Position numbers and translations under genes: made by a program
The notes under the pieces: generated by a model
The model's database searches: none
What the model was told of the DNA's origin: nothing
What the model saw: the letters and a program-made list of their open reading frames with translations, nothing else
Source: Clostridia bacterium
GTDB taxonomy: Bacteria; Bacillota; Clostridia; Oscillospirales; CAG-272
Length of the DNA: 64,000 nt
Reading direction: 5' to 3'
Assembly (NCBI GenBank): GCA_017472695.1
Contig: JAFUOQ010000003.1
Coordinates: forward strand, 40,804-104,803
Part shown: positions 18,219 through 55,083 of the stretch, piece by piece
Position numbering within the stretch: position 1 is the first letter of the stretch
Layout: each line of letters begins with the position of its first letter

Positions 18219-18223
18219 TTCTC

Positions 18224-19396: not shown

Positions 19397-19410
19397 TTTA
19401 TCTGCACCCC

Positions 19411-20472: not shown

Positions 20473-20486
20473 TGTATCACTCCAAA

Positions 20487-23126: not shown

Positions 23127-23170
23127 TTTGTTTTCTCCTTTTGTATATGTAAAATTTTAATAAGCATTAA

Positions 23171-24661: not shown

Positions 24662-24731
24662 ATTTGTTCCTTTTCTTTGCGACCCACGTATTGTGCCACT
24701 CGGCACAATACGTCTGTCACTTTACTTATCC

Positions 24732-30700: not shown

Positions 30701-32249
30701 TACCTGCTGCTCCCTTTCTTGCGGCAACGTTTGCCTTCTCCTCGAAGGTGTTAGAGCCACGCTCTACAAGAACGATTTTGCCCTTAACATCCATTCCTGT
30801 GTAGTCCGCATTACGACCTGCACCTGGAACTAGAACGTATTCGTATTCCTTTTCGTCCTCGCTATCGCTTAAAAGGTCCTCAACAAAGTTTCTTTCCTTT
30901 GCTGCACTATTGGTTGACTCTACAAAGTAAATGATTTGACCATTGTAAAGTATATATGGAGTTTTAACACCATTGATTGACGCAACGGACATAGCTCCCT
31001 CATATGTAGAAGGTGAGCCTACTGTTGCGGTATCTGGGTTTGATGTAAGACCTAGGTTACCATTCTTTTCAGAGCCATACGAGGATGTAAAGCTGTTTGA
31101 AGCGGCAACAACCAAGCTAATGCCTTGGTTACGAATCTTATCATAAACACCTGTCATAGCCTCCTTGTCTGACTCACGGCTGAAGCCACAAGCAGTACCG
31201 AGTGACATATTGATTACGTCAACGTCAAGAATAACACAGTCCTCAAGCGCGTCAAGAATCCAGGATGCCTTTGCAGAATCCTGTATGTCAGAGAATATTT
31301 TCATTGAAACAAGCTGTGCGTTTGGCGCAACACCTGTAATTGTATCGTCCTTACCTACAATTACACCTGATACGTGAGTACCATGGTTATTATGTAATGA
31401 ATAAACGTCTGCGTCCTGGTCTGCATAGTCGAACGAGAATGGAACCTTGTCGTTCAAATATACATCATCAACAGACAATCCGTTTAAAAGAGCTGCTGCC
31501 TTTGTCTTATTGAGCTTTAAGGCAACCATATCTCTTGTTAAGCCAAGTCTATTTCTATCGGCAGTGAAATTATCAATAGAAAATGCAGAATGAGTGTAGT
31601 CAAGACCAGTGTCTAGAACTGCAACTGTCATTCCTGTTCCGTCATATTTATAGCTTGAGCTATCAAAGATACCTGTCTCGTATACGTTAACGCTGTTTTC
31701 AACGAGTCGTGTTTCGCTTACGTTATAAACCTCACTAACTATTGCGGTAGCCTTACCCTCAAAGCTTTGGCATGCAAGCTCAAAGTCCTTTGCCTTAAGT
31801 ATGATTTCAAAGCCACTAAGGAGCACGGAATAATCTACTCCAGCCTGAAAATCAACATTATTTTCTTTGAGAAGCTCGATGATTGTCGCCTTTTCACAAG
31901 CGATATCCTCCTCGATTTCCTTTGCCTCATCAGTCAATACATACTCTGCAAAGGAGATGTCCCTATCCTTTTGATTGTATGCATCAAGAAGAGGTGAGTT
32001 GTCAAGAGTAACGATAACTGATATTTCATCATTATCCTTAACAGTAGATGGTAGTTGTTGAACAACTCCTCCATCGTAATATTGGCTAGCGTCTATGCTC
32101 ACGTTGTTTGACACGTCCTTGATGTAAGACGAATTATAAACTGACTCGTCTTGACCAAAAACAGGAAGTGCAAGTGAGAAAATAGTTGCACATAGCAATA
32201 TCAGCGATAGCATAATTGTCGTTGTTCTTGTCAGTACTTTTCTGTTCAT
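24732..32249 (-). CDS. Cell-surface S8 subtilase with PA domain, Ig-like domains and BspA-type LRR_5 repeats (2505 aa)
   Basis: Signal peptide; VLDTG, HGTHVSG and GTSMACP triad; many IGxxAFxxCxxL repeats; C-terminal TM and basic tail. Confidence 0.93.
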   Translation of the reverse strand: MNRKVLTRTTTIMLSLILLCATIFSLALPVFGQDESVYNSSYIKDVSNNVSIDASQYYDGGVVQQLPSTVKDNDEISVIVTLDNSPLLDAYNQKDRDISFAEYVLTDEAKEIEEDIACEKATIIELLKENNVDFQAGVDYSVLLSGFEIILKAKDFELACQSFEGKATAIVSEVYNVSETRLVENSVNVYETGIFDSSSYKYDGTGMTVAVLDTGLDYTHSAFSIDNFTADRNRLGLTRDMVALKLNKTKAAALLNGLSVDDVYLNDKVPFSFDYADQDADVYSLHNNHGTHVSGVIVGKDDTITGVAPNAQLVSMKIFSDIQDSAKASWILDALEDCVILDVDVINMSLGTACGFSRESDKEAMTGVYDKIRNQGISLVVAASNSFTSSYGSEKNGNLGLTSNPDTATVGSPSTYEGAMSVASINGVKTPYILYNGQIIYFVESTNSAAKERNFVEDLLSDSEDEKEYEYVLVPGAGRNADYTGMDVKGKIVLVERGSNTFEEKANVAARKGAAGIIIFNNVSGDIKMNVGTSSLAVCSISQKDGEVLAAAGSGTITVSRSQASGPFMSDFSSWGPSPSLGIKPEITAHGGNILSSITGGGYDRLSGTSMACPNLAGVTILLRQYVTENYDKIIGDGETNEYKRDVNINATVNRLMMSTADIIYNKNGLPYAVRKQGAGLANLTSATVTKAYILTHDRLTGEAMDKTKIELGDDPEKTGVYTLNFSVVNFGTTYYSYDISAYVMTEGVSDVKTHQGETTVTEEGYLLEGAGVDIKVKNGTLVGNNVTVPAGGISNVTVTITLTEENKKYIDESFENGMYVEGFVTLTPTWGTDISLNVPYLAFYGDWTQAPLFDLDYFETNADELNDNIPTLDKTLPDAYATRPIGGIEEDYVSYLGSYYFLQNPNNKVISASRDYIAISNTEGTIHSIRFIWAGMLRNASKIEVTITDDQTGEVVFETVEKDVRKSYGDGGSYLYPANVDVEFDAKEHNLKNNTKYTVKVVGYLDYENDGLETNQNNTFEFPFTTDFEAPAITGCEFYTEYDKDLEKNRLYARMAIYDNHYSMAAQIGYVDKEYNFVPFSSYMTPIYSEYNGISYVEVELTDYIFDIKNDAVNLNSIVVACYDYALNDATYEIGLPDEFEDFFFETEEVVLSPNELYNLTPDIYPETEWTELLKYHSTNENVAIVVNNKVIALNPGVTRIFATDPVDHTTTSFKLTVLSEDDEGYVEYDKPVADEFTLIGYDTIKAYYIVDSNEREIGVTGDVTIFPSKNYSITLYPSESVKLKYKLDAYFPDITSVIFESNDDSIVTISEDGTIVAVDEGYSSVSVKVLLNGKSTYYSQTVSIEVKDPYVTTAPTLTHYYGNGGVVEIPESLLLTEIGQFAFSNFDYVPKESWELDPDDPSTSKMWYIGENTITKVIIPEGVKKINPYAFANLTALEEVVLPSTMEAIEYGAFLGCVNLKKVEGLEYVQLINKDAFAYCNLEGTISLDNACAIGDYAFAENGTREDSNEDGIIDMYDRIVSYNLVGAILPEKLQSIGGYAFYHNESLTDITVNAEKVKYGPYVFAYCTSLKEIKMNANVIPEGAFLGCTSLENVVIGKDVSTIGEFAFTRTNISSFNLVEENNSFIVSENGDYVLSADGTTLLFVSPTLEGEFSLDNANVTRIGKGAFAYNSKLTSINIPSVTAVGANAFAYCTKLENITLGELTEIGDYAYFRTGITQLPSFNNIKELGAYAFAYTRITSVDIPENMVVGEGAFSECKEIKSVTIGDNAVLGLGAFMLARDNNYNTEELKRDPNYSQKVYYYELTSKLKSLTIGKNVVIGDSAFMGASKLESVTLGDGATLGAQAFYNTPCLKSIDLSKVKSIGDRAFSGDILYTYSDQGAQSVALDANGYYIYHYYSAPLTEINLSSLTFIGEDAFSNCHELTTVTLGKKLTEISANAFMNCTALTSINLENVKVIGLQAFAEAPLVLINLSSCEVVGNYAFVNCKELTTVVFGTNGAAVNEGAFAYAESLTNIENLDKVKSISAYAFAYTALTSADLSSCVSIGDWAFLKESLTDFEVTLGDALQELGDNPFAMCKLAPFSQKVEKEFNGKVYVDYNYSFDISENVIVIDGSLYQRVPLGLELITFAGTEVQNVKIADETVRISAMAFAGSDVVRVTLSEVLNSIGHKAFYDCDKLVTVIFRSYEAPVLEEEFDSAYYDSFENLPATGDYEFTDYNGNILVFEGLGIVPYYMWNVSDGKYSNAYYGASFVNQIGHGNPELVMVRPTNGLYYETFIYSQYFTTVVDGIVAKQDATLEAIEAISKLPAKLTLEDEEAVIHARKLYDIAAAINDQKALITNYSTLVSAESTILALKSLQDDDTTDGEAPDGTAPEDGTDNETNEEEKNEDSNSGLAVIIVVVSCVGAVLLVALVIAIALIVASIKTQASISVIIATFIMKRMQKRLLKKLAKQAKKMEKEQQKAIKKAEKAEKKSSKKSKKALKEDVVVEEAVTTSETNENE

Positions 32250-32817
32250 TGATTTTTTGCCTTTCTTTTATTTTGCGTGTGATATATATAATATTGTTAA
32301 CATACGGTAGTATTTTATCATAGTAGATATCAAATTTCAAGTGCAAAATTAGAATTGGAGTCTTTATTAACTAATTTTAAATGAATAAAAAATGAATATT
32401 TCTTTATTGTGATAAAACAAAAAAGTGTTAAAACGCTAAACAATATAAGGTGTTTGAAGGATTTCTACAAATTGCATTTTTTATTTATTAATTTTATAAA
32501 ATCATTTTAATCTTAAAAAAATTTACAATTTCTTAAATTTTTGCCCTCTTTTTTGGAACACGCTCTAACTTCGCAGCTAAAAAGTGCCACCCAGTGTGTA
32601 ATTTTTATTTTTTAACCAAGGGGAGTGTCTATTTTTAGAACTTCATTTTTTATATTTTTTAAAGCTTGCTTAAAATTCACTCCTTGCACTGTTTTTCAAG
32701 CAAGCAATGCAAATTTTTTTGGCAATCTTTTACATAAGATGTAAAAACCGCTATATCCCTTGACAAGATAATATTTTTATGCTAAAATTACGGGTAAGTA
32801 ATATTATATAGGACAAG

Positions 32818-33678
32818 GTGATTCAAATGACTGAAAAACAAACAAGGCTAGTTCACTTGATATATGGAATTGCTCTTTCCTTGCTCCTTGTAGCACTTGG
32901 CGTTTGCTTTGCATTATCCTGCTTGGATATCTATCAAAGCGGTGAAGCATCTCCATTCACTCCCGAGGCTATCAAGTCGCATTTTATGAGCATTTTAGTT
33001 CCTACAATTTTGTGCATTGTTGCAATCATTGGCGGTGCATGCCTACACATCTTTATGCCAGCAGAGGACAAAAAGATTCGATCCTCGGTTTCTGACAAGG
33101 TTGTTATTAGAAACCTATCCAAAAGAATAGATTTTAAGGAAGCACCTACCGCTTTAGTTAAGGTGGTCAAGAGCCAGCGTGGATTTAGACTCGCCTTTTT
33201 GATTATCACAATTTTCAATGCTATTGTAAATGCAGTTAGTGCTGCGCTTCATTTAGTATCCGCTATGGGTGATTATTATGCCCCTGATGTAAAGGTTCTT
33301 GAGTTGCCATTTGAAACAATTTTGCCAATTATTTTGACAACTCTTTCATACTCAATTATTCCTATTTTCGTTATTGCAGTTTACCTTGTTTTTGCAAGCT
33401 TCACTTATGAAAAGGAATTAGAGGCTGTGCGTGGAATTGTCGAGCATAACGCAAAAAAAGGCAACCCAGTGTCTAAAAAAGAGTCACATAATGAAAAGGC
33501 TTGTTTTTTAAAAAAGCATAGCAAGAAATTAAAAATTGCATTACAATGCATTATTTTGGTTTTATCTATTACACTCATTGCTCTTGGCGCATTGAATGTT
33601 AGCGGAAATATGAATGAATTTGATTTTGTATCTTCTCTTGCAAACAGAATTTGCACAGGCTGTATCGGTTTAGGTTAA
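32818..33678 (+). CDS. Multi-TM membrane protein ending in a CD1871A-type CxxC motif
   Basis: About 5 TM helices; C-terminus ANRICTGCIGLG. Confidence 0.8.
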   Translation: MIQMTEKQTRLVHLIYGIALSLLLVALGVCFALSCLDIYQSGEASPFTPEAIKSHFMSILVPTILCIVAIIGGACLHIFMPAEDKKIRSSVSDKVVIRNLSKRIDFKEAPTALVKVVKSQRGFRLAFLIITIFNAIVNAVSAALHLVSAMGDYYAPDVKVLELPFETILPIILTTLSYSIIPIFVIAVYLVFASFTYEKELEAVRGIVEHNAKKGNPVSKKESHNEKACFLKKHSKKLKIALQCIILVLSITLIALGALNVSGNMNEFDFVSSLANRICTGCIGLG

Positions 33679-33688
33679 GGAGGTTTAA

Positions 33689-35653
33689 ATGAAGGACACA
33701 AGAAAAAGAGTCATTTTAAATCTCGTTCCATCTGACAATGAAGGCGTATATGTACATCACACAAAGCCTCTTTATAGCGATGACGACTTGGTAAATGTCA
33801 ACATCACGGACTTCATTGAGGATGATGATTTAAGATTTAGAGATTATAACGATAGCTTTACAACAGAATTTAGAATTCCTGATGCACCACCAAAAATAGA
33901 GGACGAGGAAGCATCAGAATATGTAAAGGATGTTTCTATCGCTCACGACACTATGGTTGTAAACCTGGAAGAAGAGGAAAAGCCTACCTACAAGAACAAG
34001 CTTCTTGGTGCTCTTAAAAAGCTTATACCCTCCAAGAGAAGGCTTATTCAGCTTTATGCTGCTCTTCTCTTCAACGCCAACATCAAGGGCTACATTCAAG
34101 GAAATATGTATCAAGGAAACGACAAATTCATTTGCTCTCCTGGCATAAACTGTTACTCATGCCCTGGTGCTATCGGCTCATGTCCGCTCGGTGCTTTGCA
34201 AAACAGCATTGGCGACCACAAATATTCCTTCTATGCTTTGGGAATTATTTTCCTTTACGCACTTATGTTTGGTCGTTTTATTTGCGGTTGGCTCTGCCCA
34301 TTCGGACTTGTTCAAGATTTGTTACATAAAATAAAGACACCCAAATTAAAAAAGAGCCCCGTTACTCGCGCTCTTTCTTATTTGAAATATGTAATTTTAG
34401 TCCTGTTCGTCTTTGTTTTCGCCCCGATTGGCGTTTACCCCGCTTTCTGTAAATTTATATGTCCTGCAGGTATTTTAGAGGCGGCATTCGGTATTTTACC
34501 ACAGGATACAGAGCTATTAACACAGCTCGGTCCTTTATTCACTTGGAAATTCACTTTATTTATTTGCTTTGTTGTTATTTGTATATTTGTATACAGAGCA
34601 TTTTGTCGTTTTATTTGCCCAATGGGTGCCATTTACGGTATTTTTAATAAAATTTCATTCTTTGGAATTAAGCTTGAAAAGTCAAAGTGCACCAGCTGTG
34701 GACGTTGTATCACAAAATGTAAAATGGATATTAGACACGTTGGTGACCACGAATGTATCAGCTGCGGTGATTGTATAGACGTATGTCCTACCAAAGCAAT
34801 CTCATTCAAGGGTCCAAAGATTTTTCTCGCTCCTAACGAAATCAACATTCCAGAGCATGCATCATATGAAGAACTTGAGGCTCTCGAGCAAAAGCAACAG
34901 GAAATAAACACAAAAACAAAGAAAAGAAATAACACAATAAAAACCATTATTGGCATTATCATGGCTGTAGTACTAGCCGGAGCTCTTATTTACTATAATG
35001 TTATAAGGAACGATGAGCTTTGGAATTGGGTAGACAGCTTGCAAGCAGTTGACACTGACACAAATACAGATACCGATTCAAGCGCTGATACCGAAACAGA
35101 CACAAGCACAGACTCCGGCTCTACCGATACAGAATCAGACACAGAAACCGGCACGGAAACCGAAGCTATTCAAAAGCCACCTATTGGAAACAAGGTGGGT
35201 AACACCTGTCCCGGCAGTGAGCTACAGGTATTTGACGAGCACGGCATCTCTGCCCAAACATTTGACCCTACAAAGACTGGCAAGGTTACTGTTATCAACT
35301 TCTGGTACACGACCTGCGCCTCCTGTATTGCAGAGCTACCATATTTTGACGAGCTAGCAACCCAATACAAGGATTCAGTTGTAGTTGTTGCAGTCCACTC
35401 TACAGACCCAAGCTTTGCATCTGCTTTTGATTTTGTAAAGGCAAATTATCCAGAAACAGAAATGGTATTCGTTAAGGACACCGCCCTAGGAACTGGAAAC
35501 GATGCATACTACATGGATCTTGGTGGTAGTAAGTATAACACATATCCAATGACTGTAATCATTGATGAAGATGGTGTTATTACCTTCACAAAGCGTATAG
35601 CTATCGAAAAAGATGTTCTCTTTGACGAGGTTGAAAAGGCTTTAGGCAAGTAA
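33689..35653 (+). CDS. Membrane polyferredoxin (NapH/MauN-like) fused to a TlpA-type thioredoxin domain
   Basis: CGWLCP, CKFICP, CRFICP; CTSCGRCITKC and CISCGDCIDVCP; TM, D/T/E linker, then NFWYTTCASC and YPMTVIID. Confidence 0.9.
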   Translation: MKDTRKRVILNLVPSDNEGVYVHHTKPLYSDDDLVNVNITDFIEDDDLRFRDYNDSFTTEFRIPDAPPKIEDEEASEYVKDVSIAHDTMVVNLEEEEKPTYKNKLLGALKKLIPSKRRLIQLYAALLFNANIKGYIQGNMYQGNDKFICSPGINCYSCPGAIGSCPLGALQNSIGDHKYSFYALGIIFLYALMFGRFICGWLCPFGLVQDLLHKIKTPKLKKSPVTRALSYLKYVILVLFVFVFAPIGVYPAFCKFICPAGILEAAFGILPQDTELLTQLGPLFTWKFTLFICFVVICIFVYRAFCRFICPMGAIYGIFNKISFFGIKLEKSKCTSCGRCITKCKMDIRHVGDHECISCGDCIDVCPTKAISFKGPKIFLAPNEINIPEHASYEELEALEQKQQEINTKTKKRNNTIKTIIGIIMAVVLAGALIYYNVIRNDELWNWVDSLQAVDTDTNTDTDSSADTETDTSTDSGSTDTESDTETGTETEAIQKPPIGNKVGNTCPGSELQVFDEHGISAQTFDPTKTGKVTVINFWYTTCASCIAELPYFDELATQYKDSVVVVAVHSTDPSFASAFDFVKANYPETEMVFVKDTALGTGNDAYYMDLGGSKYNTYPMTVIIDEDGVITFTKRIAIEKDVLFDEVEKALGK

Positions 35654-35658
35654 ATAAC

Positions 35659-35688
35659 AAAACGCGGGACTTTCGTTCCGCGTTTTTT
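35659..35688 (+). terminator. Intrinsic terminator
   Basis: AAAACGCGG...CCGCGTTTTTT. Confidence 0.7.
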
Positions 35689-35856
35689 GTGTAAACGAAA
35701 AGGACAATAAATGGTGCGTAAAGGACAGTTTTTAAAAATCATAGAATACGTAACCTACCGACAGAAAAAGGACAGAAAATTTTTACGTTCTCCGTCATCT
35801 TTTTGTTTGATAATAGTGACTAAAAGTTATTTGCTTGCTTTTCGGACGGTAAAAAA

Positions 35857-35973
35857 GCCTTCTCCTGTGGGAGAAGGTGGCAGCCGCAGGCTGACGGATG
35901 AGGAGTTAGTTTGTCGTTTGATGACACCTCATCCACCGCTATCGCGGTCCCCCTTCCCCCACTGGGGAAGGCT
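35857..35973. repeat. Inverted pair of REP-like double-hairpin elements (REPIN-like)
   Basis: 35857-35903 (reverse) and 35924-35973 (forward); same architecture as the elements at 435-514 and in the 84-bp repeat. Confidence 0.8.
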
Positions 35974-36205
35974 TGATTCATACAAACCCATTTGTTTGCA
36001 AACAGACAAAAATTTGGTTGTAGTCTTTAATTAAGACTTGACAAGCACTGCATTTGCGGGCACAAATGCAAAAATACGGCATACCTCTTTCGAGATATAC
36101 CGTATTCTTGCAGAACTATCCTTTAGAGCAACGCTCTAAATCTCGTCCTTTTTGATTTTGAAATGAAACTGCTTTACGGTTGATACACCAAGGCAGCCTT
36201 TTTAT

Positions 36206-38416
36206 TTATTCTTCAACCTCTGGGGCTTTAATTGTTATATTCACCTCTCCGCTAGCGGTGGAGTCTGCCATTGAAACAAGCAAAAGAACTCTCGAATTTG
36301 TGTTTGAGCTTTGGTTTTCATTAGATGTAACAAGTACATATGATAAAACCTCGCCTGTCAAAATTTCCTTCGTTTCACCATTCACGATAATTTCAAGCTT
36401 TGCATCCTTATTGTCAATAGAGATTGTTGCACCGTTGATATCAAACATTGTGTAATATACGCTTTTTCCAGCCTCTATTATAACATTTGTTATACTGCTT
36501 GTATTTTCATCGCCATTTACAAGGAATGGATATTCTTGGCTTCCATCTCTTTCATGGTTGATGTGAACAATAAGCTCCGTTTCATCGCCAAATGGAATGT
36601 ATTCGTTTTGTGTTTCATAGCCGTCTGGGCAAATTGCCTTTATATAGTAGTCGGCACATTCTGTAATAGAAGAAAATGTGTATTGTCCGTTTGCATCGCA
36701 GGTTACTGCTGTATCCTCATTGCAAGGAATGTAGCTTCCGTTTTCTAGTATATAAAGCTTAATTTCAGCATTCGCTAAAGGCTCATTTTCAAGAAGAACC
36801 TTTACATTGTAATCCGCACTTGTTTGTGCAAAGGTCAAGGCTGCACTGATAGTAATAGCTGGTTGCTCGGTAACATTGCCATTTACCTTTTGAGATGCAA
36901 AGCAAACAACTACTGTATCGCCAGTTTTAACTGATTTTTTGTTTGGATTGCCATTAATTGTGATATAAGCATATTCTGTTTCGCTTGTTACTCTTACTGT
37001 GCCATCCTTATCAGCTACAAATGTGTAGTAAACTGCACCATTTTCTGCAACCTTAACATCAAGGATAAGACTCTCACCAATTTCATTTACATTAATTTCA
37101 TAAGGTGTTTTTCTTGAGCCTGGGAGATAAACCTTACCTGTGATATGGTCCTCACCATCGGTAGCTGTAGTTGTAAGCTTTACTGTTGCTCCACTCTTTA
37201 ATGTTACCTTAAGCTTTCCATCAACAGGCTTCTTTGTAGAGCCGTTATACACGATATTTGCGGTGGTTGAGTCAATTTCAACAACCTTGTCCTGTGAATC
37301 CGGAATAAAGAACCAAACAAAGCCACCGTTTAAAAGTGTAACATCAATTGTATCAGTTAAGAAAATTGGGCATTCTTTTGTTGTTCCTGCTATGTTGCTT
37401 GTAGCTGTGATTTCACCAGTTGTTTTTCCATCCCTTGTGAACTCAACATAGTTGGCATAGTAGCCACCCTCTACAGTTGCGACAGCAAAATAGTTACCAT
37501 TAGGAACTGCAAATTTAGCCACGCCATCGGCTGTTGTTGTTTGCTCGTCCAAGAGGTCAAGCTCTTTACTATAAAGTGACACCTTCGCGCCCTCTAGTGC
37601 ACCATTGGAATCCTTTACATTTAATGTATAGTCAATTTCTGTTTCCAGAACCGTGAATTGAACAGTCTTTTTCTTTGAGTCCTTGAAGTCGAAATACTCC
37701 TCGCCCTCAAGAGTTATAAGCTTATATGCGCCATTATTCTCACTATGCTTTGCCCTTGCATAGTATGTTCCAGGCTCAACAACAAACTCTGCTTTTCCGT
37801 CACTTTTGGTAATTACGCTCTCTACAACCTCTAGCTTGTCATTGAGAAGCTCAACCAAAATGCCAGAAAGCTTTACACCATGAAGGTCAGAAACATTTAC
37901 TATATATGTTTCATTTTGCTTAATTGTAACTGTTACTTTTGTTTTTCCTTCTGGGAATGGGATTTCCTTTTCCTCTGGCATCACATATCCATCAGGAACA
38001 CTATTCAATTGAACCTTAAATTGTGTAATTTCCTCATATTCGTATTTTACAACGCCTTCTGCGTCAGAAAACTTGGAAGGCAAGCAGAAGCCCTCCTTGC
38101 TACAAATTTGAAGGTTTACGCCCTCTACAGGCTCACCAAACTGGTTTTCTACATAAACTGTGTAAACAACCTCAACATGCTCTTGCTCTGTTTCTGTTTC
38201 GGTTTCAGTTTCTGTTTCAGTTTGGGTCTCTGTGTCGGTTTCTGTATCTGTTTCGGTTTCTGTTTCAGTATTTGTCTCGGTTTCTGTTTCAGCTTCGGTC
38301 TCTGTTTCAGTATTGGTATTTGTGTCGCCAGAGCCACCGCATGAAGCAAATACAAGAGTCACACCAACAAGTGTCATTACAAGCAAAATCGCTAGTAATT
38401 TCTTAAATTTACTCAT
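36206..38416 (-). CDS. Lipoprotein with a (TE)n linker and repeated prealbumin/Cna-B-like beta domains
   Basis: Lipobox FASC; TETE tract; repeated YxVxV...GVxVxL...DGxAxF; GS/T-xxx-P repeats. Confidence 0.85.
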   Translation of the reverse strand: MSKFKKLLAILLVMTLVGVTLVFASCGGSGDTNTNTETETEAETETETNTETETETDTETDTETQTETETETETETEQEHVEVVYTVYVENQFGEPVEGVNLQICSKEGFCLPSKFSDAEGVVKYEYEEITQFKVQLNSVPDGYVMPEEKEIPFPEGKTKVTVTIKQNETYIVNVSDLHGVKLSGILVELLNDKLEVVESVITKSDGKAEFVVEPGTYYARAKHSENNGAYKLITLEGEEYFDFKDSKKKTVQFTVLETEIDYTLNVKDSNGALEGAKVSLYSKELDLLDEQTTTADGVAKFAVPNGNYFAVATVEGGYYANYVEFTRDGKTTGEITATSNIAGTTKECPIFLTDTIDVTLLNGGFVWFFIPDSQDKVVEIDSTTANIVYNGSTKKPVDGKLKVTLKSGATVKLTTTATDGEDHITGKVYLPGSRKTPYEINVNEIGESLILDVKVAENGAVYYTFVADKDGTVRVTSETEYAYITINGNPNKKSVKTGDTVVVCFASQKVNGNVTEQPAITISAALTFAQTSADYNVKVLLENEPLANAEIKLYILENGSYIPCNEDTAVTCDANGQYTFSSITECADYYIKAICPDGYETQNEYIPFGDETELIVHINHERDGSQEYPFLVNGDENTSSITNVIIEAGKSVYYTMFDINGATISIDNKDAKLEIIVNGETKEILTGEVLSYVLVTSNENQSSNTNSRVLLLVSMADSTASGEVNITIKAPEVEE

Positions 38417-38493
38417 TTTTTCCTCCGTAATTTATATTTTAATATTTGTCGAAAACATTATATCATTTAAAATGTGTTTTTGCAACACTTTTC

Positions 38494-40245
38494 TTATCCT
38501 ACAAAGGTAGAGTAAGTAAATTCTATATCTTGCTTTTCTTCGCTAATGCTTACAATTTCAAATTCGATTATTGTTATTTCAGTTTCTTCGCCTGTTTCCT
38601 CGTCGGTCGCGGTTTGGGTTTGAGGATAAAGAGTAATTTCTATTGTTCCTTTCTCATCCGCCACATATTCTTCGCCCAAAACAACAACCTTAACGCCTTG
38701 CGCATTTTTTATTGTCAAGGTAGCGATTCTTCCTTGCAATGATTTGAAATATAGGGTTTCATTAGCATCAATCTTTACAAGACTTGCTGGTGCATCAACC
38801 ACGTCAGCAACAACGATTTTAGAGTCTTCTCCGCCCTTGTCGTTTTCAACAAGAGTACAGCATGCAAAGAGCCATGCATTTTCTTCTGTTATGCCCTCAA
38901 TTACTGCACCCTCAATAATGTCAAAAACTCCATTAGCTCCTGGAACAATCGTATTTGGCTCTTTAAAGATATTGCTATCACCGTAATACCATCCACATTG
39001 CTCCATTACATTTTTAATAACATATTCAAGCTCCTTTGTAAGAGGAGTAACGCCTGCGCTATCACACTTGCTTGCATATTTTTCAAAGAAGGAATTGTAT
39101 GTTTCTCTTCTTAAAGCATTTCCATTTTCATCGGTGAAAATCTTAAATAGTCCAGTGTAATCGCACATTTGCTTGAATGAATCTATATATTTGCTTGATG
39201 ATGTAATTCTCACAAGCACAATTACACCATCCTCTGTGCCGAGGTGATAATATCCATCATTCTCGTTATATACGACTGTTAGCTCAGCATCAGTTACATC
39301 TAGGTCAACAAGATCACAGTTTAGATAGTTATACTTGCTTATTGCACTTGGAACTTCCTTTGCAACATAATCAATTTCTTGGATTGGCTTTGAAGCATCT
39401 CCTGTACGCTCGATTGTAAGGAAGCAAGTATCTGTTGCCAAGGATTTAACTCCTATAACATAGGTTGCAGTTCCACCGGTGCCAGTTGACACGCTAGAAT
39501 CAAGCACTTCTATCTCGAATGTTCCATCCTCATTTTCAACGCTGGAGTCCTTTTCTGCAAAAACATTGTGTGTACCACCATAATATCCGATGTTTATCGC
39601 GACATCGCAAATATATCCAAATTTGTACACTCCCCCGCGTGTAGGTCTAAAAATGTAATATGATTTTTTATCAATTGCAACCTTGTTTGCGCCCTCTGTG
39701 ACAAAGCCTGCCTCGTACTCATATTGCTCATCAGTCTTTTCATCATAAGGGAAAATTGTTTGTTTGTCCTCGTTTGGTATATTATAAAGCAAAATTTCCT
39801 TTGATGGCTTTTTAGCTGTTACAACACACTCGTTTTCATCATAGATAAGATTATTGTCTTGATAGGTAAGGTCAAAGGTATAATCGCCCTTTTCAAGTGA
39901 AATAGTAGCAACGCCATCTGTTGTTTTAGTCATATTGCCAACAGGCTCTCCATCCTTGTACATTTGCACAAAAGCTCTAGACGAAATAGGCTTGCCTGTA
40001 TAGTCTATAACAGTGATTGTATATTCAATTTCGTTTGACGGAGTGTCTGTATTTGTTTCAGTTTCAGCTTCAGTTTCAGATTCTGTTGCCGTATCAGTTT
40101 CAGTATCTGTTTCGGTTTCAGTTTCAGTATTTGTTTCAGTCTCTGTATTTGTTTCTGTATCTGTGTTAGATACACCACCACATGCACAAAGTAGCATAGA
40201 AAGTGCAAAAGCAAGACATATAATAAATATTATTTTCTTATTCAT
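38494..40245 (-). CDS. Lipoprotein with a (TE)n linker and one DGYYH...W...C domain
   Basis: Lipobox LCAC; TETE tract. Confidence 0.85.
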   Translation of the reverse strand: MNKKIIFIICLAFALSMLLCACGGVSNTDTETNTETETNTETETETDTETDTATESETEAETETNTDTPSNEIEYTITVIDYTGKPISSRAFVQMYKDGEPVGNMTKTTDGVATISLEKGDYTFDLTYQDNNLIYDENECVVTAKKPSKEILLYNIPNEDKQTIFPYDEKTDEQYEYEAGFVTEGANKVAIDKKSYYIFRPTRGGVYKFGYICDVAINIGYYGGTHNVFAEKDSSVENEDGTFEIEVLDSSVSTGTGGTATYVIGVKSLATDTCFLTIERTGDASKPIQEIDYVAKEVPSAISKYNYLNCDLVDLDVTDAELTVVYNENDGYYHLGTEDGVIVLVRITSSSKYIDSFKQMCDYTGLFKIFTDENGNALRRETYNSFFEKYASKCDSAGVTPLTKELEYVIKNVMEQCGWYYGDSNIFKEPNTIVPGANGVFDIIEGAVIEGITEENAWLFACCTLVENDKGGEDSKIVVADVVDAPASLVKIDANETLYFKSLQGRIATLTIKNAQGVKVVVLGEEYVADEKGTIEITLYPQTQTATDEETGEETEITIIEFEIVSISEEKQDIEFTYSTFVG

Positions 40246-40305
40246 AAAATCTCCAATTAAGAATGCTCTTAAATAAATTAGGCGGTTGTAAAACCGCCTA
40301 ATAAA

Positions 40306-43300
40306 TTATTCGGTTACTTCTGGACCGAGATATTCATAATAGTAGCAAAGCTTTGTCCAAGAGTTTTCAACGCCCTCGAATGTGAATTTGTCCATAAGGA
40401 ACTGGAGCATTTGCGCTAGCTCCTCGTCAACCATAACACATCCTTGTCTTTCGGGATAGCCTTCCTCGTCAAGCATAAGCTCAAGATATTTTTTTGCAGC
40501 CTCTGTTAAGTCAGGTGCTAGCTCTGCTCCCTCTGGTGGGGTTTGAAGCTGCATCTCTGTTTCAAGAGTTTCCTCGTCAATTATGACATATTCGTAGCCA
40601 TAAGCTCTATACTGACCATCAACGATATATCCGTGATATACACCATTCATAATATCGTCCATTTGGTAGAATTGCCAGTTTGCATCGAAGTCTGCGCCCC
40701 AAAGCTCGCGTAGTCCGTCCTCGCCATAGTTGTCAAGGTAAGCGATAGCCTCTTGGTCAACGGCGGTTCTTTCAAAAATGAAAGCGTTAGCCTCTATTAA
40801 TTCTTTTATTGATTGTGTTGTAAATATGTTTGTGTATTGATGGAAATCGGCATAAAGAACTGAACCAAGTGTGCCGTCCTCACGAACATGGTGATAATAT
40901 CCGTCATCACCTAGTGCAACATCAATACCACCCGCGATAGTGTCACCTTGTACACCGCCTATACCCTCTTCGTATGTGAATGGGCCTGGAGATGCAACAA
41001 CAAAGTAATCAAATGTTTCACCGATATATTGTACATCAAATGTAAACTTACCATATTGATATTGGTCATAATAAGCGAAGTTGATGTAGTACTCCTCACC
41101 AGCCTCCATATATGCTACCATTGATGCGTTGGTAAAATCTCTTTCATATACGCCATCGCCATCCGGGTCAACAAGAAGCTCCTTGCAGAAGCGCTCACCA
41201 AGGTCAGAGTTTGTGTACTCTATTCTGTCACCGTTTGCAACCCATGTATCATGGTCACCAACGAAAATCCAACCATTAACCTCATATACGCTATTTGTTG
41301 TGAATCTATATACGCCTGATGTTGTTGGAACGAACTTGTAGAGCAAGCCTCTTGGCATAATAACTCTGTTATATTCTACAACATTTGGTAGATCCTCTTT
41401 AACCTCGTATGCGCTAAAGGAAGCGAGTCCCTTAATTGGATCCTCAAGCTGCTTACCATCTGTTCCGTATGCATCATAGTAGTAGCAAAGAGTTAACCAT
41501 TGGTCAGGGTTACCCTCGCCTATACCTGTTTCCTGCTTAACAAAAGCATCAAGATATTTTTGAAGAGTTGGAGTTACAGGACAGTATGAATAAATTTGCG
41601 AGTTAGATGCGTAGTTGCAATACTTAATAAGATCATCATAGCAGTTTACGCCATCAACCATAAGCTCCTTTGAATCAGTAATTGTAAGTGTTATGGAGAT
41701 GTCGCTTGCAAAATTGGTGTAGTTAATAAGGCTAGCCAAAAGAAGCGGACCATCCTTTGTGCCAACGTGGTAGTATCCATCATCGCCAAGAACTGCTGTT
41801 ATATATTTTTCATAATCGGAACGATCCTCTGTCAAGCCTGACACTGCATCGCGTGGAATGTATGTTTCAACATTTATATTCTCCGCGTTTACAACATGGA
41901 AATTTTTGAGATAAACTGTATCGTCACCTTCATAATCAGAAATATTCTTTAGATATACAAATGTAACATCGTATGTACCATCCTCGGTAGCAACCCATGG
42001 GCAACAGCCCTTCCACTCTTCGCTCTCACCGGAAATTGTGTATATGTCCTTGCCATTAACTAAAACGTAAAGAACATCATAGCCTTGTTCAGTTGAAGCA
42101 AAATAGTCAAACATAAATGCTTCGCCAGCCTTGAGTACTACCTCTGCATGGAGAATAGCGTATGATGAATCCTTATCGAAGTTAGATGCCTTGATACAAT
42201 CAACGCCATCTAATTTTGTGATTATAAATGGCCATGCATATTCTGCATCGCTTGATTCAGTTTCTGGCAAATATGTAACATCGATTTCGCCGTTATTAAG
42301 AACCGCCTCAAGCTCCTCTTGAGAAGGCATTTCCTCTGTTGGTTTATCTGTTGGAGTCAATTCAGTTACGCTACTAAAGAGTCTTTGTTGATAGTCATCA
42401 TCGCTAACTAGATAGTATTCAAACATCATATCAAAGTATTTCTCACTTGGAACTGCACCAGTATGCATAAGTGAAACCATACCATAGCGGTCAATAACTA
42501 TTGTTACAGGGTTACCAGCAATGCCAAATGCGCTTTCAATATCATTTGCATCCTTAATCATTTGTAAATCAAGTGCGAATGCGCCAACGATGCCTTCCTT
42601 TGCGTTTGCAAAAACATCATCAATATTTTCTGAATTTGCATCCTTTAAATCAGTTGAGAAGTTAGCAAGTGCTATTCTTAACTTATTGCTGTCTGCCTCT
42701 GCTATTGCTGTTTCGATTGCTAAGGCAAGCGCGTCAGCTGCAGCGCTTATATCATCCTCGCTTTTAATGCTTTCAAGCAAAGCATCAAGCGCTTCTTCTA
42801 TTTTTGTTTCATCAAAATTCTTCAACTCAATATTAGAGTTAGTAACAAGTGTAGCAGCAAGAGCCTTTAAAGAATCATTCTTTTTAAGCTCATCACATAT
42901 TGCGTTGTAGCTTCCAAATTTTGCATAGAATCCGTCTTTAAAATTCTTTACAGTTGTTTCATTATCTCCACCAAGCTTACCATTGAGTGCGAAAAGCGCA
43001 ACCCTGTCGCTGTATTTTGTATATGAAGACTCCATATCTGGGAACTCCTCAATACAGTACGAGCAGGTTGTGAACCAAAAGTTAAGAACTATAGCATCCT
43101 TCTCCTCTAAAAGCTCGGAGAACTTGTATGTAACACCGTCTACTGTAATTGAGTAGTCATAAATAATGTCACCAAGCTTGAAGCTAGATGGCTTCTCTGT
43201 AAGAAGACTGGATTCTAGCACGATGTCAGCGCCAGTTTCGCCCAGTTCATAGAATTCTTCAACAAAGTAGCCCTTTGGAGCTTCGTCAAGCTCGATTGTA

Positions 43301-43689
43301 AACTTCTCATCTGTAGGCAAGGTGAATGTAGCTACGCCCTTACTATCGGTAACGCCCATTCTATCCTTTGATATATTGCCATTAGAATCATAAATATAAA
43401 CTCTAACGCCCTCGAGTGCCATCTTACCAGCTGATTTTACAGTAATAGTATAGGTAGCCTCGCCTTCCTCGTTTTCAGTTTCGGTTTCAGTCTCTGTTTC
43501 TGTATCTGTTTCAGTTTCGGTCTCTGTATCCGTTTCAGTTTCGGTTTCGATGTTTGTTTCCGTCTCCGTTTCTGTGCTGGTGTTTGTATCGGTATCACCA
43601 TTTCCACCACATGATGCAACAAAGGCAACACAGGAAAGAAGCATAATCATAGCCAAGACAAGCAATAGCACCTTCTTTGTTTTTTGCAT
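40306..43689 (-). CDS. Large lipoprotein with a (TE)n linker, a TlpA/redoxin domain and two DGYYH...W...C domains
   Basis: Lipobox VASC; LNFWFTTCSYC and NPVTIVIDRYG. Confidence 0.88.
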   Translation of the reverse strand: MQKTKKVLLLVLAMIMLLSCVAFVASCGGNGDTDTNTSTETETETNIETETETDTETETETDTETETETETENEEGEATYTITVKSAGKMALEGVRVYIYDSNGNISKDRMGVTDSKGVATFTLPTDEKFTIELDEAPKGYFVEEFYELGETGADIVLESSLLTEKPSSFKLGDIIYDYSITVDGVTYKFSELLEEKDAIVLNFWFTTCSYCIEEFPDMESSYTKYSDRVALFALNGKLGGDNETTVKNFKDGFYAKFGSYNAICDELKKNDSLKALAATLVTNSNIELKNFDETKIEEALDALLESIKSEDDISAAADALALAIETAIAEADSNKLRIALANFSTDLKDANSENIDDVFANAKEGIVGAFALDLQMIKDANDIESAFGIAGNPVTIVIDRYGMVSLMHTGAVPSEKYFDMMFEYYLVSDDDYQQRLFSSVTELTPTDKPTEEMPSQEELEAVLNNGEIDVTYLPETESSDAEYAWPFIITKLDGVDCIKASNFDKDSSYAILHAEVVLKAGEAFMFDYFASTEQGYDVLYVLVNGKDIYTISGESEEWKGCCPWVATEDGTYDVTFVYLKNISDYEGDDTVYLKNFHVVNAENINVETYIPRDAVSGLTEDRSDYEKYITAVLGDDGYYHVGTKDGPLLLASLINYTNFASDISITLTITDSKELMVDGVNCYDDLIKYCNYASNSQIYSYCPVTPTLQKYLDAFVKQETGIGEGNPDQWLTLCYYYDAYGTDGKQLEDPIKGLASFSAYEVKEDLPNVVEYNRVIMPRGLLYKFVPTTSGVYRFTTNSVYEVNGWIFVGDHDTWVANGDRIEYTNSDLGERFCKELLVDPDGDGVYERDFTNASMVAYMEAGEEYYINFAYYDQYQYGKFTFDVQYIGETFDYFVVASPGPFTYEEGIGGVQGDTIAGGIDVALGDDGYYHHVREDGTLGSVLYADFHQYTNIFTTQSIKELIEANAFIFERTAVDQEAIAYLDNYGEDGLRELWGADFDANWQFYQMDDIMNGVYHGYIVDGQYRAYGYEYVIIDEETLETEMQLQTPPEGAELAPDLTEAAKKYLELMLDEEGYPERQGCVMVDEELAQMLQFLMDKFTFEGVENSWTKLCYYYEYLGPEVTE

Positions 43690-43909
43690 AGCATAACTCC
43701 TTAATATAAAATATAATTTTTAAGTCTTTTATATTATAGCACACGCGTAGCATTTTGTCAATAGAGGGCTTTTCCTCTTACACCATATGTCATATTTTTT
43801 CAAAAAACGTAGCACCCTGTGTCTAATTTATTCAGAAATTTGAACAAATGTTCATTAAAAATTAACAAAAGAACCCTCCTTGTTTTTGAGGAAGGTTCTT
43901 CATGTTCAA

Positions 43910-45406: not shown

Positions 45407-47371
45407 ATGAACAAAACACAAAAAATCAGAGTTACCCCTGATATGATTATTAATGATATGGGTATTGAAAAGGTTGAAAACTTTTTCTGCGAATTTGATA
45501 ATGATGGCGACCCACTATATGGTGTAGAGGGTTCAATACCTCAAGTTCATCCAAGACACGACCACTGGTGGGTTGGTCAAACCGACCTTCAGTTCACGGT
45601 AGAGCTTGACGGTATTTATCAAATTACCAATATGTATATTTATAATGACTACGACGCATATAAGCCTGAAAAGGATAAGCACGACTATGGCGTTCGTAAG
45701 GTTAGGGTTAAAATGGGTACTCCATTTAGTTGGGAATATAATGAGGAGCTTGCGCCGGAGGTTAGAAAATGGACCGGCTTCGAAACAAGCCACAAGACAC
45801 GTTATATAAACTTTTCCTTTAACAACAACCAAGCGCCAAGTGAAATTGTAATTTATGGCTACAAGGTTGAAGATATTGACCTCACTCCTCCTCCAAGAAA
45901 GGAGCACAAGCGGAGTGACCTTTCAAAGTTTGTTGGTATGAACGGCTTTGTTAATGATGGTGACGATATTGCTCGCGCTTGTACATACATTCGTGAGTAT
46001 CACCCTTGGCTATGGAGCTGCACCCCCGACCTTGAAAACACCACTCTTTCTATGAACCCAAGCTTTGCAGGTCCTTGGTACTTTGATGAGTACTATGAAA
46101 GAATGCATAGCCATGGAATTGATGTTGCTACCACAATTTCTACTCATCATAAGAGAACTCCTAAAGACAACACCTGTGACTCTTGCGATCCTAAAAACTA
46201 TATGTCCTACGCAGCAATGCTTTTCCAATTTGTTGCTCGTTATGGGCACAATAAGGATATCGACCCTGAGCTTATCAAGGTTGGCCCTGGTCAAGAAAAG
46301 AAAATCGGTCTTGGTTATATGACCGCGGTTGAGCCACTTAATGAGCCTGACGGCACATGGCTTGGTCGTGAGCCTTACTTCTCTCCTTTTGAGATGGCTG
46401 CATTTTTAAGTATGTGCTATGACGGGCACGAGGGAATGTACAAGAATGTCGGTGTTAAACAGGCTGACCCTAACTTTATTATGTCAATGTCGGGTGGTGC
46501 TGGACTTCACCTTGGCAGACTCAAGGCTATGCAGTTCTGGTGCGAATACAACCGTAAGGACAAGAAATTGCCATTTGATGTTATAAACGCTCACAGATAC
46601 TGTGGTAAGCGCACTAACCTAAAGACCGGTAAAACAAAGAACGTTGACGTAAATATTGCTGACCGTGGCGACCAATCACAAATGGTTTACGTTGGCATTT
46701 CTCCTGAGGAAGGCGATATTATCGGCGCTTTCAGTACTATTATGGACTGGCGTGATAGATACTATCCAGATATGGAAATTTGGCTTACAGAATTCGGCTG
46801 GGACACTAACCAATCATATGAAACCTCAACCTCTGCTCACGCATATGGTGAATACACAGGCAGACAAGTACAAGGCATGTGGCTTGTTCGCGAGTACTTG
46901 CTCCTCTCCTCTATCGGTGTTGAGCGTGCGGCTATGTATATGTCCCGTGACTGTGGCCCTGAGGAAACAGCTGTTGGTAAGTATGGTTCTTCCGGCTTGG
47001 TTCGTCATCCTATTGAGATTGACCCAACCAATGTAATCCAAGGCAATAAGAAGGACTCCTTCTATTATATTTACACCTTAAAGGAAATTTTGAAGGACAC
47101 TCGCTTTGTTAGTGAGATTGATTCAGGCAATCCAAAGGTTAAAGTGTTCAAATATGAAACCGCCGATGGTAAGGCAAGATACGCTGTATGGTGCCCAACC
47201 TCTAACTCAACAAAGGTTAAAAGATTCAAGCTCAATGTTGGTGAGGGCGAATTCGTGCTTGCTGAGCTTGAGTTTGAATACTACAAGGGCAAGCGTAGTG
47301 ATTTGAAGAATAAAAATGGATTTGTTACATTCTGTTCTTCAGAAAAGCCTGTATTTATAATTGAAAAATAA
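45407..47371 (+). CDS. Clan GH-A-like glycoside hydrolase with no signal peptide
   Basis: Acid/base LNEPD, INAHRY, nucleophile WLTEFGWD. Confidence 0.75.
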   Translation: MNKTQKIRVTPDMIINDMGIEKVENFFCEFDNDGDPLYGVEGSIPQVHPRHDHWWVGQTDLQFTVELDGIYQITNMYIYNDYDAYKPEKDKHDYGVRKVRVKMGTPFSWEYNEELAPEVRKWTGFETSHKTRYINFSFNNNQAPSEIVIYGYKVEDIDLTPPPRKEHKRSDLSKFVGMNGFVNDGDDIARACTYIREYHPWLWSCTPDLENTTLSMNPSFAGPWYFDEYYERMHSHGIDVATTISTHHKRTPKDNTCDSCDPKNYMSYAAMLFQFVARYGHNKDIDPELIKVGPGQEKKIGLGYMTAVEPLNEPDGTWLGREPYFSPFEMAAFLSMCYDGHEGMYKNVGVKQADPNFIMSMSGGAGLHLGRLKAMQFWCEYNRKDKKLPFDVINAHRYCGKRTNLKTGKTKNVDVNIADRGDQSQMVYVGISPEEGDIIGAFSTIMDWRDRYYPDMEIWLTEFGWDTNQSYETSTSAHAYGEYTGRQVQGMWLVREYLLLSSIGVERAAMYMSRDCGPEETAVGKYGSSGLVRHPIEIDPTNVIQGNKKDSFYYIYTLKEILKDTRFVSEIDSGNPKVKVFKYETADGKARYAVWCPTSNSTKVKRFKLNVGEGEFVLAELEFEYYKGKRSDLKNKNGFVTFCSSEKPVFIIEK

Positions 47372-54543: not shown

Positions 54544-54749
54544 AGTGATATTCTTTGCTCTCGCAAAGAGTGATATTATCGCTAACGCGATAGTGATATT
54601 GAAGCCTTGCGGCTTCAGTGATATTCTATTCGCCTCAAAAACTCGCGAAGCGAATACCACTCGGCGTAAGCCGAATATCACTGCGTAGCAATATCACTCG
54701 CCGCAGGCGAATAGAACTGGCGTGATACTCCGATAAGAGTATCACGCCA
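54544..54749. repeat. Mirror-symmetric array of GTGATAT/ATATCAC heptamers separated by variable hairpins
   Basis: GTGATAT at 54545, 54570, 54593, 54618; ATACCAC 54654, ATATCAC 54675 and 54691, ATAGAAC 54711; terminal 13-bp hairpin. Confidence 0.85.
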
Positions 54750-54888: not shown

Positions 54889-55001
54889 CGTTGAAGTTGT
54901 CGGGGAAGCTCGGCAATCGAGAAAACTCTGGAGAATCCCGTAAAATCGGGTGCCGAAGGTGCAAGGCATGAGCCGAATCTCTCAGGCAAAAGGATAGAGG
55001 A
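54889..55001 (+). ncRNA. Glycine riboswitch (singlet with a short upstream hairpin)
   Basis: CTCTGGAGA...GCCGAAGGTGCAA...CTCTCAGGCAAAAGGATAGAG; promoter TTGACT(54843)-17-TATAAT(54866); precedes an AGCS transporter. Confidence 0.88.
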
Positions 55002-55083
55002 AATTTAGTATATCTTTTGTATATCTTTATTTTTGGAGTTGCTGTTTTTTAGCAACTCTTTCTTTTTTAGTAAAGGAGCTTTT

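Follow-up and report, generated by a model that had tools for sequence, protein, structure and literature searches.

A gene cluster of uncultured gut Clostridia that probably supplies thioredoxin-type surface lipoproteins with reducing power via an iron-sulfur membrane protein

How might a cell in whose genome neither CcdA nor DsbD is found deliver reducing power to the proteins on its outer surface? To our knowledge, outward export of reducing power across a bacterial membrane is known only via the Cys-pair carriers DsbD, CcdA and their kin. The question is raised by a stretch of 64,000 nucleotides (hereafter the window) of contig JAFUOQ010000003.1 (assembly GCA_017472695.1, positions 40,804 to 104,803) of an uncultured gut Clostridia bacterium, which carries a conserved and hitherto unstudied gene cluster. 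The cluster encodes a membrane protein with a C-terminal CxxC (A), an iron-sulfur membrane protein fused to a TlpA domain (B), and three lipoproteins (C, D and E), next to a cell-envelope protease of the S8 family and an Opp-type importer. We propose that this cluster probably sends reducing power outward through the iron-sulfur membrane protein to thioredoxin-type surface lipoproteins. The five genes, their motifs and the lipoboxes were located by the list of open reading frames (ORFs) and by family scans at the places given by a sequence-only reading of this DNA, and all coordinates are collected in Table 1.

The source genome (G000) is 1.78 Mb in 43 contigs and 90.65% complete, and the relatives of the locus are metagenome-assembled genomes of gut Clostridia/Oscillospiraceae. 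In a scan of species genomes 515 relatives of B were found, and the closest 80 of them serve as the set of species-level loci. Flanking genes were examined by tblastn in the 59 loci with at least 9 kb upstream and in the 40 loci with at least 9 kb on both sides, and co-occurrence at the level of genomes was assessed on 151 sampled genomes of the order. Architecture, conservation, pairing and co-occurrence, as given below, are direct observations on these sets.

Protein B consists of a NapH-like membrane module (residues ~114-327) with four CxxxCP-type motifs, a 2x[4Fe-4S] domain (328-380), a fifth transmembrane (TM) helix (TM5, 416-434), a T/D linker (~452-495) and a TlpA/Redoxin domain (503-654) with the active site C543-A-S-C546 (FWYTTCASC). 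Fer4_5 (PF12801) was matched in two stretches with 57.5 bits (cut-off 22), and the Redoxin domain (PF08534) passes its cut-off of 26.6 with 48.4 bits. The NapH-type layout, that is, a four-helix module with two CX3CP motifs (C199/C203 and C306/C310) followed by two 4Fe-4S motifs, is present in B; the best NCBIfam match, TIGR02163 (NapH/MauN), reaches 77.9 bits, below its cut-off of 213.05, and the NapH equivalog NF007013 reaches 64.5 bits, below its cut-off of 234. A total of 20 Cys are invariant in 14 aligned relatives of B, including ten in the membrane module (C149, C155, C158, C165; C199, C203; C254, C258; C306, C310), the eight Fe-S Cys, and C543 and C546 of the TlpA domain, of which the cis-Pro P620 is also invariant (14/14). 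The fusion of Fer4_5 with Redoxin was found in 118 of the 120 best B matches, and B is the only Fer4_5 protein in the genome. The best solved relatives of its TlpA domain are ResA and StoA; no solved structure was matched by sequence to the membrane module.

Some further features of B vary among its relatives. The acidic N-terminal extension (residues 1-110) is kept only in the closest relatives (e.g. P0005, P0006, P0012 and P0094) and absent from most, and may be where the electron donor docks. Tandem TlpA domains, both with an intact CxxC, are present in some relatives (P0038, P0057, P0072; L046, L059), and in P0044 and P0111 an additional, degenerate thioredoxin-like insert separates TM5 from the active domain. 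Export of the Fe-S domain by the twin-arginine pathway, as described for a NapH-NapG fusion in the available part of PMC5449189, was considered and rejected; no twin-arginine motif was seen before TM4, by eye only.

Protein A is encoded directly before B. An upstream ORF of at least 100 aa ending at the start of B was found in 71 of the 79 loci with a B ORF, and 70 of these 71 end with CxxC[IV]G[LMI][GF]. The only residues invariant in 38 aligned A proteins are A275, C279, C282 and G284. The true start of A may be at 32827, because its homologues begin at the Met of MTEKQ. The last helix and tail of A align to the full 38-position model of CD1871A_fam (NCBIfam NF040920), with scores of 17.1 bits for the tail and 14.0 bits for the whole protein, both below the cut-off of 32 bits, and the long-form relatives in G012 and G100 pass this cut-off with 34.8 and 33.3 bits. 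In the order sample, CD1871A_fam was found over cut-off in 12 of the 151 genomes, which are the same 12 (besides G000) that have a NapH-like match, and in 11 of them the CD1871A_fam member is directly upstream of the NapH-like gene. A likewise has a helix and a C-terminal CxxC and is encoded directly upstream of a Fer4_5 gene. Typical members of the family are ORFs of 49-96 aa, while A has 286 aa and five helices. Since its tail resembles CD1871A_fam and this family pairs with a NapH-like gene, A should be the long form of a family whose sole known trait is that pairing. Judged from sequence and gene order, A and B are an obligate pair.

Topology and the contact between A and B were predicted. 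By hydropathy and K/R counts, the N-terminus of A is inside and its CxxC tail outside, and in B the loop 200-234 (7 K/R) is inside, from which it follows that C149-C165, C254/C258 and the TlpA domain are outside and the Fe-S domain is inside, provided that the weakly hydrophobic stretch 118-137 after KRR is the first helix. The predicted topology of B agrees with that of NapH, for which four helices with the clusters on the cytoplasmic side are described in the part of PMC5449189 available. E should be outside by its signal peptide and lipobox Cys (26/27). The thioredoxin domains of B and E are thus both predicted to be extracytoplasmic, B by positive-inside counts and NapH homology and E by its lipobox, in line with the sequence-only reading, which had both TlpA domains facing outward. 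A (T[ED])n-type linker occurs in 16 ORFs of the genome, of which 12 are spread over 7 other contigs; since it follows directly after the lipobox in 11 of the 16, the T/D/E linker should be an outside tether in this genome. The same linker does occur in C, D and E as had been claimed, but its frequency deprives it of value as a specific link between these proteins.

For the complex prediction, B 105-445 was combined with A. The interface score ipSAE was 0.70 (runs 0.71, 0.70 and 0.70), the best of three controls being 0.00; ipSAE is a model confidence and not a measurement. Of 157 solved complexes 116 score at or above the mark passed here, as do 2 of 215 mismatched pairs, counts that hold roughly for the alignments of our own used here. 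Between runs, 92% or more of the contacts recur, and the predicted local distance difference test (pLDDT) of the partner is at least 75. In the predicted interface the tail of A (267-286) lies against the outer Cys loops of B (149, 155-157, 163-165, 254-256 and 258), and the K/R-rich loop of A against the cytoplasmic loop and Fe-S domain of B. These contacts agree with both independent topology estimates, and the model altogether supports the binding of A to B, a check that had been suggested for the proposed relay.

The three lipoproteins carry the lipoboxes (by pattern) FASC in C, LCAC in D and VASC in E, each with a (T[ED])n linker, and the lipobox Cys is kept in D (C22, 23/23) and E (C27, 26/27). 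E consists of a CnaB-like domain, a TlpA/ResA-like fold with a long helical insert (~168-440) and two D-like modules. In its active site FWFTTCSYC (C209-S-Y-C212), C209 and C212 are invariant in 27/27, together with the cis-Pro P394, and the D-like modules have H641/C735 and C1084/C1115, kept in 26/27. The Pfam scores of E are under the cut-offs (Redoxin 21.8, cut-off 26.6; AhpC-TSA 23.9, cut-off 26), as is the NCBIfam score for the ResA subfamily (51.2, cut-off 170), and the PDB matches are ResA chains only. A first tblastn reading, in which distant E relatives were without the TlpA part, was dropped after a motif scan found WxxxCxxC kept in them; by the same scan many loci have two or three thioredoxin lipoproteins downstream of B. 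The E relative in the L008 genome (G156:C28:1142-3178) has one in-frame TAA inside the match, which may stem from a disrupted gene, an error in sequencing or a pair of genes.

D, for which no Pfam family was found, consists of a CnaB-like domain (70-156), a beta-sandwich, a Cys/His module (286-472) and a PPC/collagen-binding-like sandwich (470-583). The model of D (pLDDT 83.5) aligns in its CnaB/transthyretin-like domain with 3e8v (Z 10.7, root-mean-square deviation (rmsd) 1.9, 76 aligned) and at its C-terminal end with the collagen-binding/PPC-like 3jqw (Z 8.7, rmsd 2.7, 101 aligned), and with whole D Foldseek gave only multi-sandwich matches. The only invariant Cys of D are the lipobox Cys and C462 (23/23), and D330, H334, W419 and R280 are invariant as well. 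The sequence-only reading had pointed to Cys pairs in the two other lipoproteins, of which QICSKEGFC of C stood up (30/30 rows selected by similarity to C); in FACC of D the first Cys, C462, is kept in 23/23 and the second in 13/23 only. When folded alone, the module of D gave a pLDDT of 85.1 and a predicted template-modelling score (pTM) of 0.82. No match of the module fold was found among solved structures, the best VIA Z being 2.5 with just 4 of 48,161 chains at Z of at least 2, and the best Foldseek E being 0.24; in the Atlas, D 160-470 gave unnamed clusters and PPC, and D 300-470 gave no usable named match. A caspase-like His/Cys reading of this module, made from motifs, was dropped, as no fold match was found. 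As far as the models go, D and E share a new Cys/His module without structural match in PDB. A profile search with the D/E module gave 1040 representatives at E of 0.001 or less among 1.84 billion, and 17 of 36 long members (chosen for length) have an N-terminal Redoxin/AhpC-TSA domain. Two of the 36 (P0237 and P0259) have a type I dockerin at their end; the module should hence also be present on cellulosome-type scaffolds. Its domain contexts identify the D/E module as extracellular and repeatedly tied to thioredoxin.

C starts with a CnaB/carboxypeptidase-regulatory-like sandwich (82-168) with a conserved Cys hairpin (QxC..C), and the remainder is formed by bMG3/CarboxypepD_reg-type domains (Pfam).

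The sequence-only reading had set A-B in one system with all three lipoproteins and possibly with the S8/Opp operon. An S8 protease gene was found in 58 of the 59 loci with sufficient upstream sequence, and the gene for the 511-aa lipoprotein is next to it in 56 of the 59. Among the 40 fully flanked loci, S8 is present in 39, E in 26, D in 25 and C in 12; A, B, D and E are together in 24, and 11 loci have the complete set of five. The lipoproteins and the S8/Opp operon thus recur with A-B, D and E being the recurrent partners and full-length C being conserved in 11 loci only. E was found elsewhere in the genome in all 10 tested genomes whose locus had none within 10 kb. After rearrangement, S8 lies beyond E in L014, L016, L022, L026 and L050, and next to B in L052, and is still in the cluster, while conservation ends just past E (GT2 in 9/80 loci, the next gene in 6/80). 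In the order sample, fused B is present in 4 of the 151 genomes, and E in three of these 4 and in none of the other 147; the 511-aa lipoprotein, which matches no Pfam family, is present in the same three genomes as E. The Opp genes and the 511-aa lipoprotein gene lie downstream of the S8 gene in the same direction, and the S8 gene is divergent from A-B. The arrangement of an anchored S8 protease with PA and Fn3-like domains beside OppABCDF is that of a cell-envelope proteinase with its Opp importer.

The redox gene background of the genome was examined by family searches with control genomes. PF02683 (DsbD_TM/CcdA) gave 0 matches in G000, the control being found in 10/14 known genomes, and the proposed independence of CcdA and DsbD was borne out to this extent. 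No match in G000 was found for MsrA or MsrB (PF01625 and PF01641 searched; controls found in 12/14 and 10/14 known genomes, respectively) or for menA (control found in 9/14). No NapG-type partner was found among the ORFs and Pfam matches of the cluster, no genome search having been aimed at NapG/NapA. A quinol donor is disfavored because no menA was found. Among 81 CxxC motifs of B relatives, CTPC (36) and CGPC (26) are frequent and CPHC is absent; the 40 lipoprotein CxxC motifs are CGPC, CSWC, CTYC and similar, with none of DsbA type. Because the CxxC types are other than DsbA and no menA was found, a reducing direction and a cytoplasmic, non-quinol donor are favored. A standalone TlpA lipoprotein of 222 aa with WGTWCGYC (L003:1282-1950, contig C33 of G000), which is 41% identical to the thioredoxin domain of B, is likely a further client or a branch of the relay. 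The gene beside it codes for a HemK-like methyltransferase.

From these data we infer the individual transfer steps, their direction, the donor and the final substrate as follows. A cytoplasmic donor, most likely reduced ferredoxin, would load the two cytoplasmic [4Fe-4S] clusters of B, which, being of low potential, suit electron donation. By way of the two inner CxxxCP motifs the electrons would arrive at an outward-facing eight-Cys centre made of six Cys in the two outer loops of B and two Cys in the C-terminal CxxC of A. This centre would reduce the tethered TlpA domain of B itself, which would then reduce the TlpA domain of E (and elsewhere the standalone TlpA lipoprotein), and the final clients would be the conserved Cys of the E and D Cys/His modules and the Cys hairpin of C. 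Via these lipoprotein Cys, most likely, disulfides of surface-held proteins would be opened, upon which S8 could cut the proteins and Opp import the peptides. We see an even chance that the A-B complex exports reductant in this way without CcdA/DsbD, via the TlpA domains to lipoprotein Cys and surface disulfides for the S8/Opp system. A wider proposal, that A-B is a new kind of membrane-spanning, ferredoxin-driven disulfide reductase replacing CcdA/DsbD in hundreds of gut anaerobes, its outer centre being a disulfide cascade or a metal cluster and its thioredoxin lipoproteins, with their Cys/His module of new fold, unlocking disulfide-rich host or dietary proteins for protease and Opp, is tentative and must be put forward with considerable doubt. 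The sequence-only reading as a whole is partly supported, its electron flow, disulfide reductase activity and link to the proteolysis of substrates being the parts that we infer.

A number of observations weigh against the proposed export of reductant for the protease system. The C-D-E genes converge on A-B, so that the two groups do not form one operon, and sites resembling promoters and a terminator point to separate transcription. In 14 of the 40 fully flanked loci no E lies within 10 kb, and the C-type domain is present as a small lipoprotein of 136-232 aa in 18 loci, full-length C in 11 only. Nine unfused NapH-like/CD1871A pairs of the order sample occur without E and without the 511-aa lipoprotein, which indicates that the conduit is not tied to the protease system in general. 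No function is assigned to the CX3CP motifs of NapH, NosR and RdhC in the available part of PMC5928378, where disulfide or 2Fe-2S roles are discussed. As to the counts, those of loci come from the nearest 80 of 515, and since these are kin, independence is overstated and near relatives are favored; fused B is present in just 4 genomes of the order sample, one of them 72% complete and without E; and at a completeness of 90.65% the absences in the genome are provisional. The S8 protease contains 25 Cys (1.0%, vs 1.73% in the long ORFs of the genome), for which reason a relay for the maturation of a Cys-rich protease is not favored either.

Other readings of the same genes were weighed against the export of reductant for S8 and Opp. 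A relay for surface maintenance, keeping surface proteins including the lipoprotein Cys reduced against oxygen or oxidants near the gut wall, with the protease benefiting indirectly at most, would resemble its closest studied analogue, CcdA-Etrx1/2-MsrAB2, as far as described in the accessible part of PMC3914529. The thioredoxin domains of B and E match ResA, StoA and 'thioredoxin family protein' chains (4hqs, 4hqz and 2yp6), and the conserved single Cys of the D/E modules could be protected thiols. This reading is nevertheless unlikely, since the genome gave no match for MsrA or MsrB, the client known from that system, the adjacency of S8 in 58/59 loci survives rearrangement, and E and the protease-linked 511-aa lipoprotein have one phyletic pattern. 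Alternatively, the Cys/His module of D and E could be a thiol-dependent enzyme of new fold, either a thioredoxin-recycled reductase as in fusions of thioredoxin with MsrA/B or a hydrolase needing reduction, and the relay would recycle it. The invariance of D330, H334 and C462 in D relatives with corresponding H641/C735 and C1084/C1115 in E, the Redoxin domain in 17 of the 36 long relatives, the confident orphan fold and the absence of MsrA/B among the genome matches all fit such an enzyme. The module, however, matches no catalytic family and thus gives no positive sign of enzyme function, its flanking CnaB-, PPC- and collagen-binding-like sandwiches fit binding proteins, and the conserved residues could be structural, so that we regard an enzyme as distinctly improbable.

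If the flow were reversed, A-B would take electrons from the TlpA domains and make disulfides in exported proteins as a stand-in for DsbB/VKOR; the Cys of the D/E modules and the C hairpin could then be structural disulfides, and no recognised oxidase was found in the genome among those searched for here. We give this direction very little credence, as the 81 CxxC motifs of B relatives and the 40 of lipoproteins are of thioredoxin/ResA type, no quinone sink was found (no menA), and low-potential clusters in the cytoplasm fit donation. It is also conceivable that A-B serves its own TlpA domain for another client and that C, D and E have a role in adhesion or binding and remain close by through common descent, given the generic linker (16 ORFs), the convergent genes with separate promoter-like sites, the position of E beyond 10 kb in 14/40 loci and the rarity of full-length C (11 loci). 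Such an unrelated neighborhood is highly unlikely in view of the conserved TlpA fold of E itself (27/27), the two or three thioredoxin lipoproteins downstream of B in many loci, the end of synteny past E (GT2 9/80, next gene 6/80) while S8-A-B-D-E persists, and the co-occurrence of E at the level of genomes (10/10, and 3/4 vs 0/147).

Table 1. Features of the window in order of position (window coordinates)
Feature	Position	Strand	Basis
Opp-type importer (OppF, D, C, B; 879-aa SBP_bac_5 binding protein) and 511-aa lipoprotein	15856..24706	-	Pfam
S8 cell-envelope protease, 2505 aa: Peptidase_S8, PA, Fn3_5, BspA-type leucine-rich repeats (LRRs), C-terminal TM anchor	24732..32249	-	Pfam
Promoter-like site upstream of A: TTGACA-17-TAAAAT, TG	32760..32788	+	Consensus match only
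A: 5-TM protein, 286 aa, ends CTGCIGLG	32818..33678	+	ORF list
B: NapH-like, 2x[4Fe-4S], TM, TlpA/Redoxin, 654 aa	33689..35653	+	Pfam, NCBIfam
B, acidic N-terminal extension (residues 1-110)	33689..34018		
Terminator-like hairpin and T run after B	35658..35690	+	Read from sequence
Spacer between B and C, dispersed repeat	35700..36205		blastn
C: lipoprotein, Cys hairpin domain first	36206..38416	-	ORF list, Pfam
C, first domain (residues 82-168)	37913..38173		
D: lipoprotein with central Cys/His module	38494..40245	-	ORF list, model
D, Cys/His module (residues 286-472)	38830..39390		
E: lipoprotein, TlpA/ResA-like fold and two D-like modules	40306..43689	-	ORF list, Pfam, NCBIfam
E, TlpA/ResA-like fold with helical insert (residues ~168-440)	42370..43188		
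Promoter-like site upstream of E: TTGACA-17-TATAAT, TG; 12/12	43733..43761	-	Consensus match only
ORF of 654 aa, no Pfam match	45407..47371	+	
BspA-type LRR protein, 552 aa	48313..49971	+	
Gut-1 RNA	54649..54719	-	Rfam, 50.8 bits (cut-off 50)
Glycine riboswitch	54918..55007	+	
ORF downstream of glycine riboswitch	55033..56514		

Several features around the cluster are listed in Table 1 as well. The spacer between B and C contains a dispersed repeat, of which copies of 43-221 bases with 76-97% identity were found on nine further contigs, with two additional copies on the same contig, several of them close to contig ends. Between 32 and 44 kb of the window no RNA family was found by the Rfam scan. 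Past the cluster, the 654-aa ORF is 81-96% identical in five related loci where the neighboring genes are just ~57-84% identical, so that this ORF is unusually conserved; its motifs presumably recall a clan GH-A glycosidase. The BspA-type LRR protein is encoded a few genes past the cluster, after an AraC-type regulator.

No publication on the Fer4_5-Redoxin fusion, the CD1871A family or the D/E module was found in the open-access literature and bioRxiv, and new here are the co-occurrence test of CD1871A, the prediction of the A-B complex of this genome, the genome-level co-occurrence of E and the fold-orphan module. If the proposed relay is true, the iron-sulfur route would be a second solution to the export of reductant, used by many strict gut anaerobes without CcdA, and the unexplained CX3CP motifs of NapH, NosR and RdhC would gain a testable role. 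The link to protease and importer suggests feeding on disulfide-locked proteins, e.g. mucins, antibodies and plant storage proteins. With the D/E module comes a protein family without known fold or function that is repeatedly fused to thioredoxin.

Among known systems, DsbD/CcdA with TlpA, ResA and CcmG shares with this cluster the logic of a cytoplasmic reductant, a membrane conduit, a tethered outside CxxC thioredoxin fold and further clients, and fused forms of conduit and thioredoxin exist (DsbD itself). A-B is different from DsbD/CcdA in that PF02683 is absent and the conduit is of Fer4_5/NapH type, with eight Fe-S Cys, ten more invariant Cys and a CxxC-tailed partner. Reduction of a disulfide next to a cluster by one-electron Fe-S chemistry is known for ferredoxin:thioredoxin reductase and heterodisulfide reductase, which are soluble or cytoplasm-facing enzymes of unrelated sequence. 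The CcdA1/2-Etrx1/2-MsrAB2 system of Streptococcus pneumoniae likewise has Firmicute thioredoxin-fold lipoproteins on the surface, fed from the membrane and passing electrons to a surface client (PMC3914529, available part). The feeder there is CcdA, whereas no counterpart of MsrAB2 was found in the source genome, and the thioredoxin lipoprotein here is fused to two undescribed modules and encoded beside a protease-Opp operon.

The module of NapH, NosR and RdhC(PceC) (TIGR02163, PF12801) has in common with B the four helices, two CX3CP motifs after helices 2 and 4 and two following cytoplasmic [4Fe-4S] clusters, as described in those parts of PMC5928378 and PMC5449189 that are available. B adds to this plan two outer-loop Cys motifs, a fifth helix, an outside TlpA domain and an obligate partner of CD1871A type. 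Unlike with NapH, no sign of a quinone pool (menA) was found in the 90.65% complete genome, or of NapG-type partners among the ORFs and Pfam matches of the cluster. In the proteolytic system of lactic acid bacteria, the cell-envelope proteinase PrtP acts with Opp, and a gene for a PrtM-type foldase diverges from the protease gene. The cluster described here is similar to PrtP-Opp with respect to the anchored S8 protease with PA and Fn3-like domains, the Opp importer beside it and an accessory gene pair divergent from the protease gene, but the divergent genes here form a redox pair in place of a PrtM-type foldase, and the protease carries BspA-type LRRs.

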